64,000 nucleotides of DNA from IMG/VR virus record IMGVR_UViG_3300040770_000547, one strand, 5' to 3'. Each line of letters starts with the position of its first letter. Position 1 is the stretch's first letter. Shown here in pieces: positions 348-43,204 of this stretch. The notes under the pieces were generated by a model. That model did not search any database. It was not told the DNA's origin and saw only the letters and a program-made list of their open reading frames with translations. This DNA is from a virus. The translations under genes were made by a program, and so were the position numbers.

Positions 348-421
348 ACGCTGGTGTCCGAGTGGTCCAAGGAAGATGTCTGCAAAACTGAAGAGCGTGA
401 GTTCGAATCTCACCCGGCGTT
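348..421 (+). tRNA. trnC: tRNA-Cys(GCA) with poorly paired anticodon stem (possible pseudo-tRNA)
   Basis: ACGCTGG/CCGGCGT acceptor, loop CTGCAAA, T-arm GTGAG-TTCGAAT-CTCAC, U73; only 2 of 5 anticodon-stem pairs form. Confidence 0.75.
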
Positions 422-898: not shown

Positions 899-971
899 AG
901 TCGCCAGCATAATGGCATGCAGCAGGTCTCCAACACCTTGCATGGATGAGGTTCGATTCCTCAGGTGATTG
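899..971 (+). tRNA. trnW: tRNA-Trp(CCA)
   Basis: AGTCGCC/GGTGATT acceptor, loop CTCCAAC, T-arm TGAGG-TTCGATT-CCTCA. Confidence 0.85.
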
Positions 972-4249: not shown

Positions 4250-5473
4250 ATGGCAGAATCATTTGAAGGCAAAAAAATAATTAGTAACCCACTGGCAAAT
4301 CTTCGCCCACAGAAAATGCAGTACGGTGCAAAGGTAGGTGGGTTCGGTAAAGTGAACAGACAGGAGGTCTTCACAACCACTGTAAAAGGCTCCGATGCTA
4401 AGGGCATGTATACGGACACGAATAAAAACCAGGCGAATGATTTCTACCCAGGATCTCCTGCAAAAACGCACACGGCCAATGCCTGGTTTAATGGTTTGAC
4501 AGCGCAACAAAAAGCTGCTCATAATACTATGATGCGTGCTAAAGATGCTGCAGCAAGAATCCCAAGTGCTACTGTACCTGGAATGACCAGCACTAATAGA
4601 GTGTATGATCCTGTTGCACCAGTGGCCCCTAAACCAGGTAGATTCTGGACAGCAGAAGGTACAGGCATGAAGTTCGGAGGACACACCAACAGAGGAACTA
4701 CTTCAGATCAAAACGTGATCAATAGCGGTATGGCTAAGAACAAAATAGATATCCAATATCCTCAGAGTAAAAACAATACCTACGAATCAAGAGCGTTCAC
4801 TGCTACGGAAAACGAGCTTTGGAAAAAAGGTAAACTAAACAACTCTGACAATCCAATCGGTAGAGATACAATTGGTAGAGCTATGCAGCAAAAGATAATG
4901 CTTGCTTCTATGAACTCTCCAGTAAAAAGAAGAGTTATCCAGACCTCATCAATAGCTACAAGAAAAGCAGGTGGAACAATGATGGCAAGTAAATCTTCTG
5001 GATGTGGTTGCGGTGATAGCAAAATGCAAGAAGGCGGACCTGTTACAAGTATGTCAATGCAAACAGCCAAAGGATCTATGATGGGCGCTACAACTGCTAT
5101 GATGAAACAAAGAAAAGACAAAGTAAAGGCCTCATCTGGTACTAAAACATTAGGTACAATATCTAACATGGGTATGAGTTCAACACCTAAGTATGGCATG
5201 GGAACTAAAAAAGTAATGCAAGATGGCGGCCCGGTAACCCCAAAGCCTAATGCTGTAAAGTACAAAGTGCCTTTAACTACTAAGAAAGCTTCCGGAAAGA
5301 CTAATTCATCTGAGCAAGAAGAGCCAGAGGGGAACCAGAAATCCTATAAGCCTGCAGCTGGAGCAAGAATGCCACAGCCTGGTAAACAAGTAGGACGCCG
5401 TCGTACTATGTACGCTGATGGTGGTAACATTCCACAGATTGACGAGGAGTCTCCCATTAGATATCGACGCTAA
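4250..5473 (+). CDS. low-complexity M/K/G-rich protein with repeated xxQxGG motifs, probable internal virion protein
   Basis: KMQYGA, KMQEGG, VMQDGG, MYADGG motifs; largely disordered composition. Confidence 0.7.
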   Translation: MAESFEGKKIISNPLANLRPQKMQYGAKVGGFGKVNRQEVFTTTVKGSDAKGMYTDTNKNQANDFYPGSPAKTHTANAWFNGLTAQQKAAHNTMMRAKDAAARIPSATVPGMTSTNRVYDPVAPVAPKPGRFWTAEGTGMKFGGHTNRGTTSDQNVINSGMAKNKIDIQYPQSKNNTYESRAFTATENELWKKGKLNNSDNPIGRDTIGRAMQQKIMLASMNSPVKRRVIQTSSIATRKAGGTMMASKSSGCGCGDSKMQEGGPVTSMSMQTAKGSMMGATTAMMKQRKDKVKASSGTKTLGTISNMGMSSTPKYGMGTKKVMQDGGPVTPKPNAVKYKVPLTTKKASGKTNSSEQEEPEGNQKSYKPAAGARMPQPGKQVGRRRTMYADGGNIPQIDEESPIRYRR

Positions 5474-6281
5474 AGTTTCGTTCTATAATCTATCGCCAGC
5501 ACCTACTGTAATAGCTCCTTCGCCTGCGGCCGTGGCTACAACAGCTACTCCAGCAGCCCCAGTAGATCCAACAACAAGCGCTTTATTTGGAGGAGCCAGC
5601 TCAGCGCTAGAACATCTGTACAATGCTACCGACGGGACTAATAATTTCGATAAAGTAGTCGACTTTCTTGGCACCATGGCAGAGGCAGAAAGTTTTAAGG
5701 GTAAGCAGACCTACAGTCTCACCTCATCCGCCTCAGGAATATTCCATTTCCTTACAGGCAACGGAGGCGGGCACAACAAAGCAGGCGTAAAAGAGGACCT
5801 AGGCCAGTATGATGCCAAAGGAGTTCTTAGAACATCCTCTTTTGAAACAGCAAAGAAAAGATTACGCGCCATGATGGGGAATCCTAAGTACTCTGATAGT
5901 ATAAAGAAACAGCCCGGCTTAGTGTACGAGCTTTCTACTGTACTTCAGGCACGCACACCGGACGATTTGTCCCCACAAAAGCAGGCTATCCTGGCATACG
6001 CCAACCTGAAGATGCAGTCCAACGATTTCTCTAGCTATCTGCAGGGAAAACAAGCTGCTTCAGACGTGTATGGCAAGGTTTGGGTAACCCGAGGTAGCAC
6101 ACATAGCGACGGAGAGATCAAAACCAACTGGCAAAACGCTATAAAGAGAAGTGTCAACCAGAAATCAAACCACGCCTTCTTCGGTTTAGCCCCTATATCC
6201 ACTATACCAGGTATACCCAACGTACTTCGTGACGGCGGAGCTTTCGATCTGAGAGTCCAACAGAAGAAGACTTTAATCTGA
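5418..6281 (+). CDS. lysozyme/lytic-transglycosylase-like domain protein; may be a +1 frameshifted continuation of 4250-5473
   Basis: MAEAES...SSASGIFHFL resembles SLT motifs I/II; poor own start context; ends with LRDGG. Confidence 0.55.
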   Translation: MVVTFHRLTRSLPLDIDAKVSFYNLSPAPTVIAPSPAAVATTATPAAPVDPTTSALFGGASSALEHLYNATDGTNNFDKVVDFLGTMAEAESFKGKQTYSLTSSASGIFHFLTGNGGGHNKAGVKEDLGQYDAKGVLRTSSFETAKKRLRAMMGNPKYSDSIKKQPGLVYELSTVLQARTPDDLSPQKQAILAYANLKMQSNDFSSYLQGKQAASDVYGKVWVTRGSTHSDGEIKTNWQNAIKRSVNQKSNHAFFGLAPISTIPGIPNVLRDGGAFDLRVQQKKTLI

Positions 6282-6455: not shown

Positions 6456-6953
6456 GTGCCCTGCTTACAGCGAGCATACGCCAACCTAACTTGGGCAGGT
6501 CCCTTTAATCCTAACCATTCTTCAGCACAGCCCCATCTCCAGGACCCGCGTGCAAACCCGAGAACCCGTGCTTCACATAAAAAGGCCCCCGCCCTTTCCC
6601 GGAGGCTTCGCCAAATGCTGTGTAAAAAGGGGGTAGGGTCTTCCCCTGTAAAAAAATATTTAAAAAAATTTTTGGAATTTTAAGCGCGCAGTGATACACA
6701 TAGCTGAAAATCCCCCGCCGAAAACGTCAGGGAAATGGAATTTGTCGCCGAGCCTTGGGTAGGTCGATCGACTATTCCACAGCTATTCAAGCAGAGAGGG
6801 GTATAGGGGGATATCAAACCTTTGCTGAAATATTTTATTGCATTATATTACAGACAGGGAGGGAGTACCTACTATATGTGTATACTCCAATCACTATAGC
6901 CAGGCTTGATACCTAGTGCATACCAGGGCAGGGAGGGAGGGTGTATATAAAAT
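6456..6953. other. non-coding late/early junction, candidate genome terminus or packaging region
   Basis: GC-rich, C-run-rich then G-run-rich, central A/T tracts; separates late genes from the first early cassette. Confidence 0.4.
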
Positions 6954-13584: not shown

Positions 13585-13589
13585 CAAGA

Positions 13590-13830
13590 TTGTTCATTGA
13601 CGTATTATGAGTTTTTGCAAGACGGGAGTTCGACTCTCCCCAACTCCACAAATCGAAGACCGTGTATGTTGTCGATGGTGTAGCTAGCCGATATACAAAT
13701 AGCCGAACTTATGGGGTTGCCTGGTTTTGATTGCAATACACAAGTTTTACTGAGAATAGTCCCAACTATAACTCCAAAAGTTATACAACTTTTTAGTGCA
13801 GCTGATTTAGAATTAGCAGCCTAAACGAAA
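13590..13830 (+). ncRNA. ssrA: circularly permuted (two-piece) tmRNA
   Basis: 3' end GACGGGAGTTCGACTCTCCCCAACTCCA (13621-13648) precedes 5' end GGGGTTGCCTGGTTTTGA (13713); G3:U70 pair; tag frame ending ...ADLELAA-TAA (13824). Confidence 0.88.
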
Positions 13831-14249: not shown

Positions 14250-15190
14250 AATTGAAATAACGGCTTGGCGAGCGAAACGTGGGCCGTGGTTCAAAGAATA
14301 TACAACACTAGTCCTGGAATTCCTGGCAAGCCTATGAAGATAGGAACTTGGTAGAGGATAGAGGCACGTAATCCTTCATATTGCATCGGTACAAATAAAC
14401 AAAACCGAGCCGCACAACACCGTGATTCTTTTAGATAACGGAATATGATTGACTACAACCGGAGCAGCACGGATTCAAACTAACTGTACTGTGTCGAACA
14501 GGATGAAATCGATTGATGCTAGCCGTAAGGCAACTAACATCTTGTTGCATTTAAAAAGGGACAAGAAATGATAGGGATTCTGCAGGATCCAGCTATTGAA
14601 TAAGGGTAAGAATAATATCCCCTTAGAACCTCGCTGACACCAGCCAAGTCAGGAGAACAAATCGGGTGGCATCCCTCTAAGCATAAGGAGAACAACAATG
14701 CGCATTAGCATAAGGTGTACAACAATGCAAGTACTGTCGGCCAGCCATGTCAGCTTGGACCCAAAAGTTGGAGTTGATAACTTTGCCGGCAAGTACTTTA
14801 ACCATGCTGAAAAGCAATTGCAAGGAGACTATTAGGTACGTCTTCCCAGAGTAACGTGTGCCAACACCCTGGGTATCTTAGGTCAAGGATGCAATACTTT
14901 TCATAAAGTCTATAATCTGCGATAACAGAATGAATACATCAACCGCGCAACAAGGCGAGTTTAGTTTTTTAGTATGTGAGCGGTAGACACAACTACACAC
15001 AACAAACAAAGATTGCTACTTAAGCTAGTTTATGAACAGCGACTCTGACTCGGGCATCTAATGTACCGGCTAACCTTACAGAGAAAAAGGTGTAATCCCT
15101 TGCCAGTATGATTTTTAGGCAAATGCAAACTTCGTCAATGTTCCTTAGCGTTCGGGTATTAAGTATAAGATAGCATAAGCCTAAAAGTTG
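14250..15190 (+). ncRNA. candidate ~950-nt large structured ncRNA
   Basis: No ORF of 60 aa or more in any frame, elevated GC, many stems with GUAA/GAAA tetraloops and a 13-bp long-range helix. Confidence 0.7.
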
Positions 15191-15192
15191 TT

Positions 15193-15271
15193 GGGGCATT
15201 AGGGCATCAAGGGATTGATGTGATGAGCTGTAACGGAACTCAGCAGGCAGGTTCGATTCCTGTTAGCCTCA
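15193..15271 (+). ncRNA. tRNA-like element lacking a normal anticodon arm
   Basis: GGGGC/GCCTC-A ends, GCAGG-TTCGATT-CCTGT T-arm, two internal hairpins. Confidence 0.5.
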
Positions 15272-26171: not shown

Positions 26172-26636
26172 ATGTCAGGCCATTTATCAACAGAAGAGAA
26201 AGCTTTATTTAAAGCCGAAATAGATGCAATAAGAAGAAAGGATTATGCTTTTTTCATAGAGTTTTTAGAGGCAAACAAAATAAAGTTCAAAAGAACAGGG
26301 GGAACCATTGTGCTAGACGGTATGGTGGTATACGAAGATCTTCAAGTTTCTTTCGGCAGTCCCAAGACGTATCAATACAATCTTGAGACACTAAAAAGAA
26401 AAGTAAGCTCAAATACAGTATTAAGTATAAAAGCTAAGTTTATAGGTGCAAACAGCCTAGGTTACATAACAGGTTTGAATTACATCTTAAATGTACTTCC
26501 ATCTAGTGGTATAACTATATGCAGAAAAGATGGATCAGGTAAATGCGTTTACCAATCCCTAACAGCTTTTCTTGTAAACTGGGATAGCATAGAAAAAATA
26601 ACAAGCGGGAAACCACAAGATCAAGCTAGCCTATAA
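26172..26636 (+). CDS. hypothetical protein
   Basis: Tightly packed. Confidence 0.75.
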   Translation: MSGHLSTEEKALFKAEIDAIRRKDYAFFIEFLEANKIKFKRTGGTIVLDGMVVYEDLQVSFGSPKTYQYNLETLKRKVSSNTVLSIKAKFIGANSLGYITGLNYILNVLPSSGITICRKDGSGKCVYQSLTAFLVNWDSIEKITSGKPQDQASL

Positions 26637-26702
26637 ACGGGGATGCGTGGGAGGATGATAAATAAACACTGTCTGATAAGGGTTCGAATCCCTTTTTCCC
26701 GT
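26637..26702 (+). ncRNA. minimal tRNA-like element (acceptor stem plus T-arm only)
   Basis: ACGGGGA/TTCCCGT, AAGGG-TTCGAAT-CCCTT. Confidence 0.5.
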
Positions 26703-37268: not shown

Positions 37269-37714
37269 AGTCAATGATCGACTTTGTTTTCTATATAGGA
37301 AACTTAGACATAGCTCGTAAATCATCTCATAAAGAAATGGTTACCCTTATTTTTAATTATGCTCTGCTGCTTAAAGACAAACTATCCCTATGGATGTTTG
37401 TTCCCTGTGATAAAGACGGTAAAATAATGGAAGAACCGCAATCTATAAAAAACACATTTATTCAAAAAAGCGATAATGGAGACTTCTTTAACCAAAAAAG
37501 GTTTCTAGAATATATTGTAAATTATGACCAAGCAAAAAGTAAATGCCTGTTTAAAGATTTCGATTTATGGAGAAGTGGTAACGGCTTTCTAGTAAGAAAT
37601 GCATTTATAAAAATACACGACGTAGAATTTGAAAATGTAACTATAGAATATCTATCTGTTCAAGGAGGTATCTATAGTACTACTCCAGCTTTTATGAACA
37701 AAGTTGGCTTATAG
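37259..37714 (+). CDS. hypothetical protein
   Basis: LWMFVPCDKDG motif typical of flavobacterial phages. Confidence 0.8.
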   Translation: MELKSMIDFVFYIGNLDIARKSSHKEMVTLIFNYALLLKDKLSLWMFVPCDKDGKIMEEPQSIKNTFIQKSDNGDFFNQKRFLEYIVNYDQAKSKCLFKDFDLWRSGNGFLVRNAFIKIHDVEFENVTIEYLSVQGGIYSTTPAFMNKVGL

Positions 37715-37779
37715 AAGCTATAAACAAATTCATTATGGAAAAATTACAAGGTTATTTAACTGAAGTTCTTAATAAACTA

Positions 37780-38185
37780 AAATAAAGTATCCCTGTTAAC
37801 AAAAAGATAAGGCTAAACATTAATCCTTTGGAAGTGCCCATGCAAAATACTTATCGTTCGAACGAAGAAGATACAAGCACCATAATTAAGATATCGGGCG
37901 AAATCCCGGACGTGTAGCTTTCCTTGAGAAAGAAAGTAGAACAGAAGTAAAAGGTGTGCCAAGATAATTGAGCTGCACGCACTACGCGAATGAGCAGCTA
38001 TCCGTAAGGACGCTGAACTAGTAATAGTTTTCTCAGCAAGAATTAAGAAACTACGGGGAATCACTTGTGATGGCCGTGAGTGTAAAATACGTGACCCTAC
38101 TCTTACGGCATTAAAGTAGATGTAAATCGAAAAAGTACTGGTTGGTACGTGAGTAAGAAAGAGGGTGCTAAACAATCTAAAACTA
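37780..38185 (+). ncRNA. candidate ~400-nt structured ncRNA
   Basis: No + strand ORF; GAAA and GUAA tetraloop hairpins, 6-9-bp stems. Confidence 0.48.
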
Positions 38186-38192
38186 AGCAACA

Positions 38193-38471
38193 ATGAAAAA
38201 AATATTATTATTAACAGTCTGTATTCAATTACTAGCATCTTGCGGTTATGCATGTATAGACACCAGTAAACTCGTGGTGATTACCTCAATAGAATCTGCA
38301 GGGGCTAATAAGTGCGACTATTATGGCTACGGTAATTCCGGTATGACTTATAATATTTGGACTAGCGAATTGTTCAAAATGAGAGACATATGTGGTAAAT
38401 TCCAAATAGGCGATACTATTACATTTACAAAAGTAAAAGCATACAAAAACACTTCTGTGAATACCAATTAG
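38193..38471 (+). CDS. lipoprotein
   Basis: MKK-hydrophobic-LASC lipobox. Confidence 0.75.
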   Translation: MKKILLLTVCIQLLASCGYACIDTSKLVVITSIESAGANKCDYYGYGNSGMTYNIWTSELFKMRDICGKFQIGDTITFTKVKAYKNTSVNTN

Positions 38472-38474
38472 AGG

Positions 38475-38692
38475 TGGTAAATATCCGCTAGTACAAACAA
38501 ATTCACATAAGTAACCGGTTAAACTGAGGCCCCTTGAGGGATAGTGTAAGACTGTAGACAAGCCTCTGTGAAAGCAAGCTTCTTTAGTTATCGGATTAAA
38601 CTTTTGATACGGGTCATGCGCAGCCCCGATACAAGACTGGAAGAAACCAGAGCTATTAAAAATTTATTTGATAAGTTCCCTCACATGAGGGC
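38475..38692 (+). ncRNA. candidate structured RNA
   Basis: GAGGC/GCCTC multibranch, CTGG/CCAG and CCCTCA/TGAGGG stems. Confidence 0.35.
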
Positions 38693-38695
38693 TTT

Positions 38696-38878
38696 GGGGA
38701 GGTGATGTAACTGGCAGGCATGCCTGCGGTAATGCAGCAGGTGGTAAGGGCAATAATGAAAGTCATCAGGAATCAGGCCTGATTTTTAAGGTGATGGACA
38801 AGAATGACCCAAAAGTGAAAGCGGCAATTGTACATTACCCGTGAAAGCTCCGTGCAGGTTCGAGTCCTGCTCACCCCA
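38696..38878 (+). ncRNA. expanded tRNA-like RNA (183 nt) with 112-nt variable-region insert
   Basis: Acceptor, D-arm ATGT/GCAT, CCTGC/GCAGG stem with 9-nt loop, T-arm GCAGG-TTCGAGT-CCTGC, ends ACA. Confidence 0.72.
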
Positions 38879-38934
38879 CAAACCACACATTGAAAAACAA
38901 ACACAGTTATGATACATTAAACAGCAAGAGAAGT

Positions 38935-39137
38935 AGGGGCACTGAAAATTTTGTGATATAGGCATCATAATGCACTATCAAGATAACCGGAAGCATAGAT
39001 GAGGAAGGTTAAGTGCCAGGTTTGTTGAGTAAGATAAGCTCTTGTTACGTTGCCTCCGAGTAGGACAGTACGTACTTGAAGGACTAAGTGAACCTTGTAG
39101 AGTAATATCCCTATCTTGAAGGATGGGTGGTTTATAA
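38935..39137 (+). ncRNA. candidate structured RNA
   Basis: GGCACT/AGTGCC closing helix and further hairpins; no ORF on +. Confidence 0.3.
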
Positions 39138-39338
39138 GGCCGGATGGCGTAGAGGCATACGCTAAGGTTATAGGCCTAGAATGGATTATCAAAAAGCCTA
39201 TCTGTAAGACAAGTCAGGTAAATAAGCGGCAAGATAGGATAGTCCAGCAAGTTCTGTGAAAATAATAACTATTATCCCTGTAAAGGTGCTGACTAACACA
39301 GAATATAATTCATGCAGGTTCGAATCCTGCTCCGGCCA
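39138..39338 (+). ncRNA. expanded tRNA-like RNA (201 nt)
   Basis: Perfect GGCCGGA/TCCGGCC acceptor, D-arm GCGT/ACGC, T-arm GCAGG-TTCGAAT-CCTGC, ~150-nt interior, ends ACA. Confidence 0.72.
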
Positions 39339-39370
39339 CAAACAGTATTTTAATTAAACAACTAACAACC

Positions 39371-40264
39371 ATGCTTGAGATAAAAAATCAAAAGACCAAA
39401 ACCACGGCATGTAGAGAAAACGGCAGAAGCGCAGACTTTACAAGCGGTAATTTCATCTTAGGCTGCTCCCACAAAAAAGGAGATACTTATGATAATCCCT
39501 GCTCTTATTGCTATGTAGCAAGATTCGGCAGACAAAAATTGTACGTCAATACTAACACAGATGAGTTGTTGGCAGAGTGCGACAAAGCCATACAAGACCT
39601 GCCTTTCCCTAGAGTACCTAACCAAGTAGATGAGAAATACTACTACGTTGACATCTCTTGTGATACAGATATTAATCTGCATTGGAACGACTATGATTGG
39701 ATTTATGTGTTTGATTATTTCAAGAAGCATCCCAAGCTAGCAGCTACTTTTGCTACAAAATGGGTGAATACAAAACTGCTGGACTATGTTCCTGAAAACA
39801 AAATCAGAGTAAGAATGAGCTTGATGCCTGAGAAAATGAGAGCTATACTTGAAAACGGTACCAGTCCTATAATAAAAAGAGTTCAGTTCCTGGAGAAGCT
39901 TTTCCAAGCAGGATACTCTACGCACATCAATTTCAGTCCAATTATTTACCACGACAAAAAACTGAGCGGGTACAAAGAACTCTTCAACATCATTAACAAC
40001 GAAGTATCAGAGGAGTTTAAAAAACAAGCCGGTCTCGAATGTATTTTCCTTACTCACAATGCTAATCTTCACAAAATAAATTTGGAAAAAGGCCTTTTAA
40101 AGCAAGAAGAAATACTTTGGACACTAGAGAACCAAGAACAGAAAATCAGTCAGTATGGAGGCTCAAACCTGCGGTACAATCAACGTGTAAAGCCAGCTTT
40201 AATTAGAGCTTTTACAAAGTCGGTAAACCAAGACCTCAACATACCTATTAGGTATATATTTTAA
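39371..40264 (+). CDS. spore-photoproduct-lyase-like radical SAM protein
   Basis: GC-x11-CSYCY, DISCDTD, FATK, RVRMSL, GYSTHINFSPI motifs. Confidence 0.78.
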   Translation: MLEIKNQKTKTTACRENGRSADFTSGNFILGCSHKKGDTYDNPCSYCYVARFGRQKLYVNTNTDELLAECDKAIQDLPFPRVPNQVDEKYYYVDISCDTDINLHWNDYDWIYVFDYFKKHPKLAATFATKWVNTKLLDYVPENKIRVRMSLMPEKMRAILENGTSPIIKRVQFLEKLFQAGYSTHINFSPIIYHDKKLSGYKELFNIINNEVSEEFKKQAGLECIFLTHNANLHKINLEKGLLKQEEILWTLENQEQKISQYGGSNLRYNQRVKPALIRAFTKSVNQDLNIPIRYIF

Positions 40265-43064: not shown

Positions 43065-43204
43065 GGAGGCATAGCTGTTAAGATTGCATTCTAACACAGT
43101 AAGTGGGTCGCCGATGAGCTGATATTACTGCACAACATGCGCGCTAAAGATGTAAGTGATCAGTTATGTACGCGGCAAGGGAGGTTCGATTCCTCCTGTC
43201 TCTA
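43065..43204 (+). ncRNA. expanded tRNA-like RNA (140 nt)
   Basis: GGAGGCA/TGTCTCT acceptor, GGAGG-TTCGATT-CCTCC T-arm, ends ACA; no canonical anticodon arm. Confidence 0.55.

Follow-up and report, generated by a model that had tools for sequence, protein, structure and literature searches.

A covarying RNA domain in the variable-arm position of a tRNA-shaped phage RNA

The window analysed here, a 64-kb stretch of DNA from a phage-like IMG/VR contig (PHROG-only proteins, a tRNA cluster and nucleotide-metabolism genes), contains a tRNA-shaped RNA gene of 201 nt at 39138-39338 on the plus strand. The question raised by this locus is what an RNA of such a shape is: an interrupted or decaying tRNA, a mimic of one, a processing signal, or a frame that holds something else. 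From 5' to 3', the gene comprises the first strand of a 7-bp acceptor stem, TG, a D arm, a core, a T arm, the second acceptor strand and a discriminator A. A first-pass annotation of the sequence had described perfect acceptor, D and T arms around a foreign core of ~150 nt; all three stems are where it placed them, all three covary among homologues (see below), and the arms enclose 151 nt. With element position 1 set at 39138, the parts of the tRNA-like shell and the insert are as follows.

39138-39144 (element 1-7), plus strand: acceptor 5' strand GGCCGGA, seven Watson-Crick pairs with 39331-39337
39147-39162, plus strand: D arm GCG(T)/(A)CGC with GG in the loop; stem at element 10-12/23-25, pair probability 1.0
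39147-39150 and 39159-39162, plus strand: D-arm strands GCGT and ACGC around the loop AGAGGCAT
39164-39178, plus strand: anticodon-position hairpin AGG/CCT with loop TTATAGG; stem at element 28-30/38-40, pair probability 0.92-0.99
39179-39311, plus strand: inserted domain of ~130 nt in the variable-arm position, beginning directly after the anticodon-position hairpin
39314-39330, plus strand: T arm GCAGG-TTCGAAT-CCTGC; stem GCAGG 39314-39318 / CCTGC 39326-39330 (element 177-181/189-193)
39331-39338, plus strand: acceptor 3' strand TCCGGCC (helix at element 194-200) and discriminator A

The outer features of a canonical tRNA are thus present: the acceptor stem has 7 bp, the T stem has 5 bp and a loop of the TTCGAAT type, and the D arm has its GG. 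A canonical anticodon arm with a 5-bp stem, a 7-nt loop and a conserved anticodon is absent: the stem at this position has 3 bp and the triplet varies. The predicted fold of the 201-nt RNA has an energy of -63.6 kcal/mol (z = -4.63; none of 200 shuffles was equally stable), and the shell helices have a pair probability of ~1 throughout the folding ensemble. No CCA is encoded at the 3' end, where the trailer reads CAAACA. ARAGORN in its default mode does not call the element, the Rfam tRNA family (RF00005) gives it a sub-threshold 15.5 bits against a cut-off of 29, and Rfam at E ≤ 10 returned no group I, tmRNA, Y RNA, GOLLD or ROOL match.

Homologues were found by a covariance model (R1, a single-sequence model of the core) and by exact words. 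A core 22-mer, in a scan of one genome per prokaryote species, matched a 19.6-kb contig in a Flavobacteriaceae MAG (L187), whose many small ORFs share one strand; L187 scored 136 bits with R1. Words common to the window copy and L187 retrieved L190-L193, L195-L197, L199 and L201 from IMG/VR, at 42-113 bits. The ten homologues lie on eight IMG/VR phage contigs that have a tRNA-like shell, one that does not, and the MAG contig. Most of the 11 sequences were found by exact words within conserved loops, which inflates the invariance of those loops and leaves the stem covariation unaffected; the E-values come from a short calibration and are rough.

A second model built on the 11 sequences (R2) found one copy in the 64-kb window and, over 150 sampled genomes of the same phylum, none besides the MAG of L187. 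R1 gave no credible match in 157 other Flavobacteriaceae genomes, and none at all in two related phage records or in 100 IMG/VR loci sharing the T arm. The region 37700-39400 had no blastn match among GenBank phages, and exact-word scans of IMG/VR with AAGATAGGATAGTCC, GGCCGGATGGCGTAGAGG and TGGCGTAGAGGCATACGC returned chance matches in coding DNA or none. One weak genomic match (L189) was rejected, being a terminator hairpin followed by the start of a lipoprotein ORF. No gene is common to the neighbourhoods of the homologous loci. In the window copy and in four homologues, Rfam matched nothing in the element beyond the sub-threshold tRNA, and we found no account of such an RNA in the full-text literature searched, the coverage of which was incomplete.

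Aligning these sequences showed that the core itself is conserved and covarying. In a model-based alignment of nine cores, 93.2% of the cells pair compared to 72.8% in shuffles, and 24 of the 32 pairs change on both sides; none of 500 shuffles reached these values. An independent MAFFT alignment of eight full-length elements gave 94.2% paired cells versus 74.8% after shuffling, with 33 of 53 pairs changing on both sides (0/500 shuffles as good; slid controls at 31-42%). The covariation supports the acceptor, D and T stems together with five core helices, in a set of 11 sequences that is smaller than the number needed for formal significance of the R-scape type. Within the shell, the acceptor stem changes on both sides in 7/7 pairs across eight homologues and the T stem in 4/5 pairs, both with 100% of cells paired, and the D stem shows a single compensatory change (C-G to U-A, in L187). 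The domain is a conserved, covarying RNA structure absent from the Rfam catalogue.

The inserted domain is laid out as a 3-bp closing helix C that encloses two stem-loop domains:

39179-39181 (element 42-44), plus strand: helix C 5' strand GAA, closing the domain by pairing with 39309-39311
39182-39189 (element 45-52), plus strand: helix H 5' strand TGGATTAT, partner 39239-39246 (element 102-109), pair probability ~1
39197-39202 (element 60-65), plus strand: helix P 5' strand CCTATC, partner GATAGG at 39233-39238 (element 96-101)
39203-39232, plus strand: conserved 30-nt apical loop of domain I, TGTAAGACAAGTCAGGTAAATA..., with element run 65-79 invariant in eight homologues
39212-39217 (element 75-80), plus strand: candidate pseudoknot 5' strand AGTCAG, complementary to CTGACT
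39233-39246, plus strand: 3' strands of helices P and H, GATAGG and ATAGTCCA, covarying with 39197-39202 and 39182-39189
39251-39258 (element 114-121), plus strand: outer helix Hp2 of domain II, 5' strand GTTCTGTG, pairing with 39297-39304
39277-39286, plus strand: inner hairpin of domain II, CCT-GTAA-AGG, with a GNRA-type tetraloop (element 140-142/147-149)
39289-39294 (element 152-157), plus strand: 3' strand CTGACT of the candidate pseudoknot, located in the conserved internal loop GTGCTGACTAACA
39297-39304 (element 160-167), plus strand: outer helix Hp2, 3' strand CACAGAAT
39309-39311 (element 172-174), plus strand: helix C 3' strand TTC, 2 nt ahead of the T stem

Each of these helices is found in several alternative versions among the homologues. 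Helix C occurs as GGG/CCC, GAG/CTC and GAC/GTC; helix P (100% of cells paired, double-sided change in 4/6 pairs) as CTTTGC/GCAAAG, TTCAAC/GTTGAG and CGCATC/GGTGCG; and in helix H both sides change in 5/8 pairs with 98.6% of cells paired. The stem TTCTGTG (39252-39258) / CACAGAA (39297-39303) that the first-pass annotation had picked out is indeed present and belongs to Hp2, in which 6/8 pairs are altered on both sides and 95.8% of cells pair (TTCTGTG/CACAGAA, GTTTATG/CATAAAC, ATCGATG/CATCGAT). The inner hairpin pairs in 100% of cells, with stems CCA/TGG, CTC/GAG and CTA/TAG and loops GTAA, TTCG and TGAG. A reading of CTGTAAA as a tRNA-Tyr-like anticodon loop was rejected, as these letters are part of the CCT-GTAA-AGG hairpin.

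The weakest helix is the anticodon-position hairpin, paired in 47-75% of cells; its 3-bp stem is fully paired, by varied pair types, in 7/11 homologues. The loop follows the consensus UUAnnGG, and the middle triplet is AUA, AUC, AGC, AAC or ACA among the homologues, none of them a Leu anticodon (NAG or NAA). Since the triplet varies, it is not a conserved anticodon.

In the apical loop, where the search words selected part of the invariance, GTCAGGTAAA is also retained in L199 and L201, both of which were retrieved via a different motif, and in the internal loop of domain II, TGACTAACA is invariant, though it was partly selected by the search words. A 6-bp candidate pseudoknot, AGUCAG/CUGACU, probably joins the two conserved loops, apical in domain I and internal in domain II. 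Its support is thin: one pair changes in a compensatory way, from G-C to A-U in L187, and the other five are constant. Loops that vary so little suggest that the domain has a specific partner or is catalytic. In five Flavobacteriaceae genomes, a search with the reverse complement of the 21-nt invariant loop at up to 3 mismatches found no antisense target of at least 18/21 nt besides the element itself.

Other structural details proposed on first reading did not survive the comparison. The words of the stem ATAGGC (39170-39175) / GCCTAT (39196-39201) are present, but its ensemble probability is ~0 and it is broken in homologues: GCCTAT (element 59-64) covaries with the downstream GATAGG and not with the upstream ATAGGC (33-38). 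In L187, the upstream word becomes ATCGGG with GCCTAT unchanged, and elsewhere the hairpin loop does not track helix P. The segment AAGATAGGATAGTCC (39231-39245), thought faintly similar to a group I S element, consists of the 3' strands of helices P and H. Its TAGTC part is replaced by TAATC, TGAGC, TTAAC and others among the homologues, with no change in the supposed P7 partner GACTA; as TAGTC covaries with element 45-52 and GACTA stays fixed, the group I resemblance is coincidental. Finally, the ~200 nt of hairpins suspected upstream are indistinguishable from background (38880-39137, z = -1.0, 35/200 shuffles as stable) and have no similarity to the flanks of L187. The further flanks are also near their shuffles (38472-38695, z = -0.3; 37780-38192, z = -0.2).

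We then compared the shell and the domain across the homologues. The domain is 63-88% identical to that of the window copy and the acceptor stem 0-43%, and the ten shelled members carry ten different acceptor stems, each fully paired. In L193 (IMGVR_UViG_3300046719_000020, 6598-6748, minus strand), the domain and the small hairpin occur without a tRNA shell or T arm, the domain being closed by a plain 10-bp stem, AAAAAGATAT/ATATCTTTTT, followed by a T run; this shell-less case is one metagenomic contig. Different acceptor stems and the shell-less L193 together indicate that domain and shell are separate modules.

Our best reading is that a new structured RNA domain is displayed on a tRNA-Leu-like scaffold. 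More fully, we think it likely that the element is a non-decoding phage RNA of two modules, a tRNA-like shell and a conserved ~130-nt variable-arm domain, presumably excised by tRNA enzymes. The stacked acceptor and T arms are what RNase P recognises. In YrlA, a tRNA-like module whose acceptor stem has 7 bp is an RNase P substrate to which CCA is added (PMC4201824), and inserted RNAs are protected by tRNA scaffolds (PMC3753655); for these reasons the scaffold is probably cut out by tRNA-processing enzymes. The element would be transcribed on the plus strand together with its neighbours, and the shell would serve as an RNase P substrate with a 5' cut at G1 (39138). Trimming of the 3' end after A73 and CCA addition would follow, so that the domain would be excised and stabilised as in engineered tRNA scaffolds, and the product would accumulate as a stable ~204-nt RNA whose invariant loops might engage a partner through protein or RNA binding, or act in catalysis.

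The shell has features of its own that bear on this reading. Its D arm is in most homologues of the tRNA-Leu type, TGGCGGAAT(T)GGTAGACGC, and such an arm is found in 9/10 shells with the 5' word TGGCG, TGGTG or TGACG. A class II tRNA-Leu loop of the GAAT(T)GGTAGA type (3-bp stem) occurs in seven homologues, and two more depart from it slightly, a hairpin being inserted in one of them; the window copy has the variant loop AGAGGCAT, and L196 a different D arm. The discriminator is A73 in 7/10 members, and G, U and C in one member each. In L187 and L190, the T loop has 8 nt (TATCAAAT and TATCGAAT), with an additional A behind the first T. Retention of the Leu-type D arm and of A73 would be unexpected for a mere carrier and leaves room for a role of the shell.

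The shell could accordingly be the working part: a tRNA-Leu mimic charged or bound by host enzymes and acting as a decoy or sponge, with a tRNA-targeting defence nuclease, LeuRS, or modification or CCA enzymes as possible targets, and with the domain modulating or blocking ribosomal use. The Leu-type D arm and A73 fit such a mimic, as does an insertion at the variable arm, which class II tRNA enzymes tolerate, and a T arm common to ordinary phage tRNAs and ~20 other expanded tRNA-like RNAs. E. coli LeuRS, moreover, does not read the anticodon. Against it count the G, U or C discriminators of three members, the 8-nt T loop of two, the absence of the shell from L193, and a domain that is better conserved than the acceptor stem; in addition, no tRNA-targeting system or counter-defence context was found near any homologous locus. 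We regard this mimic as unlikely, although it is the alternative that fares best.

The surroundings of the element bear on another possible role. Neighbouring genes share the strand of the element, and a radical SAM gene similar to spore photoproduct lyase (SPL; 39371-40264) starts 32 nt downstream, with no terminator-like site in between. Eight IMG/VR and 18 metagenome loci with a relative of this gene (40-69% protein identity) have no tRNA-like element ahead of it, and their intergenic region aligns only to 37742-37789 and ~38192-38210; closer relatives (84-98% identity) are known as proteins. With the element region absent upstream of the SPL relatives, ~37.8-39.37 kb looks like an accessory insertion. 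This ~1.6-kb, otherwise non-coding stretch, which the SPL-gene relatives lack, holds an isolated ORF of 92 aa (38193-38471, plus strand) with a lipoprotein-signal-like N terminus ending in LLASC.

In such a setting, the element might mainly be processing punctuation, with RNase P and 3' cleavage at the shell freeing the SPL-like mRNA from the upstream RNA. The shared strand and the lack of a terminator-like site ahead of 39371 agree with this, as do a second tRNA-like element 260 nt upstream and several more between genes in the window. Such a function would, however, not call for a domain of 130 nt in which five helices covary and loops are invariant; the homologues lie in unrelated gene contexts, and the element is missing next to close relatives of the SPL gene. 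We consider punctuation improbable as its main role.

Other tRNA-like elements occur both in the window and elsewhere. The T-arm word occurs twice in the 64 kb compared to 0 expected, the other copy being in the second expanded element upstream (38696-38878, plus strand; 183 nt), which has the same T arm, another acceptor stem and an unrelated insert, and whose fold is no stabler than shuffles (z = -0.6). At 43065-43204, 26606-26702 and ~15190-15271 (plus strand), a T arm goes with a matching or near-matching acceptor in 97-140 nt that have no normal anticodon arm. A tRNA at 348-421 (plus strand) scores 44.6 bits in Rfam while ARAGORN is silent; a 73-nt cloverleaf-like element at 899-971 (plus strand) is called by neither. 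A permuted two-piece tmRNA, unusual in a phage, lies at 13589-13824 (plus strand; RF04321, 50.8 bits versus a cut-off of 47).

In IMG/VR, the same T arm is found in ordinary phage tRNAs (Tyr, Met, Phe) and in ~20 distinct expanded tRNA-like RNAs of 88-182 nt with unrelated inserts, many of which have a tRNA-Leu-type 5' half, TGGCGGAATTGGTAGACGC. The window element, a phage RNA that keeps the acceptor, D and T arms and whose long insert separates the latter two, fits this shape class, which is not a published family. Several of these RNAs (L066, L072, L085, L094, L098, L101, L145 and others; 117-174 nt) have a near-identical Leu-type 5' half and T arm, with mutually unrelated inserts. In L153, on the minus strand at a contig end, the last ~215 nt before the same T arm contain the group I R- and S-like words GGTGTAGAGACTAG and AAGACATAGTCC ahead of a tRNA 3' half; this is probably a real intron-containing phage tRNA severed by the contig end, and Rfam gave no score on the cut sequence. 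In the L187 contig, two consecutive non-coding units are each closely preceded by the word GTTCTTTAAAATATA (at 5405-5420 and 5597-5612), which may be a phage promoter or processing signal.

An intron-interrupted gene spliced into a working tRNA is a far less probable account of the window element. With introns allowed, ARAGORN does call a tRNA here, with an intron of 125 nt and an anticodon stem of poor quality, and a brute-force search of single deletions showed that excision of element 41-168 would yield a perfect stem TAAGG/CCTTA with the loop TTATAGG. A stem of this type was equalled by 79 of 1000 shuffles, however, and the spliced anticodon would be AUA, at a position where the triplet differs among homologues; to our knowledge, AUA is not in use as an anticodon by known tRNAs. 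In real tRNA introns, the exons are conserved and the introns are freer. Here, the "intron" is conserved at 63-88% and the acceptor "exon" at 0-43%, and L193 has the domain without exons. Group I models gave no match at gathering score, nor at E ≤ 10 on 38300-39700, and no RNA ligase or splicing endonuclease was found among the 28 ORFs scanned. The view that the insert is not a self-splicing intron, already taken in the first-pass annotation, is borne out by the lack of a group I match and by a domain more conserved than the acceptor stem. Least credible of all is a decaying tRNA pseudogene with a chance insertion, which would explain the missing canonical anticodon arm and the tRNA score of 15.5 versus 29 bits and is already contradicted by the covariation, with compensatory changes in 33/53 pairs of eight sequences and the domain kept at 11 loci on different contigs.

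Returning to the two-module RNA, its wider meaning may be sketched as follows. Few tRNA-like non-coding RNAs have been described (tmRNA, Y RNAs, viral 3' ends), and each of them informed the recognition of tRNA shape. The present domain is alignable, has a structure backed by covariation, and occurs in varied shells of uncultured phages, which makes it an object for work on processing, partners and 3D structure. It hints at a use of host tRNA maturation by phages as an expression system for other RNAs, through genes that standard tRNA and RNA-family finders overlook entirely. A bolder version, which we hold tentatively, is that these RNAs are the natural phage counterpart of the laboratory tRNA scaffold: portable domain cassettes in the variable-arm position of tRNA-Leu-like shells, to be excised and stabilised by host tRNA enzymes, among which the pseudoknotted domain would be a new functional class (a ribozyme or a high-affinity host-factor binder) that moves between shells and can stand alone.

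Several known systems share part of this architecture. Like group I introns in tRNA genes (RF00028), the element has a large insert in a tRNA-shaped gene and one 15-nt word similar to an S element; unlike them, it has no P3-P9 model match, its S-like word pairs elsewhere, its insert is too short and its "exons" are the less conserved part. In tmRNA, too, a tRNA-like acceptor/T-arm domain bears a large pseudoknotted insert that replaces the decoding parts, the pseudoknot being a candidate in the present case. tmRNA, however, has G3:U70 where the phage element has C3-G70, and the element has no tag reading frame and measures 201 nt versus ~350; neither the tmRNA mode of ARAGORN nor Rfam reported a tmRNA at 39138-39338.

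Phage T4 RNAC and RNAD are shorter than the 201-nt element, and we know of no conserved large domain in them. They resemble it by description, being small stable phage RNAs of a tRNA region, and the role of the T4 RNAs is unknown (PMC3014915). Class II tRNA-Leu (in RF00005) shares the Leu-type D arm and A73 with most homologues and has extra variable-arm material; the variable "arm" of the element, in contrast, measures ~130 nt and holds two domains, its anticodon-position stem has 3 bp, and its Rfam score is below the cut-off.

The YrlA group of bacterial and phage Y RNAs (PMC4201824), some of which are phage-encoded, likewise combines a tRNA mimic with a second functional module. In YrlA, the two ends of the RNA make the Ro-binding helix and the tRNA-like part lies inside, whereas in the phage element the two ends make the acceptor stem and it is the extra domain that lies inside; none of the eight neighbouring ORFs has a Ro60 (Rsr)-type domain, and Rfam gave no Y RNA match. 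In the engineered tRNA scaffold of Ponchon and Dardel (PMC3753655), as in the phage element, an acceptor/T/D frame of the kind that cellular tRNA factors recognise holds a foreign structured insert. The engineered insert replaces the anticodon stem-loop, whereas the phage element is natural, carries its insert in the variable-arm position beside a short hairpin, and is predicted to be processed in a comparable way.
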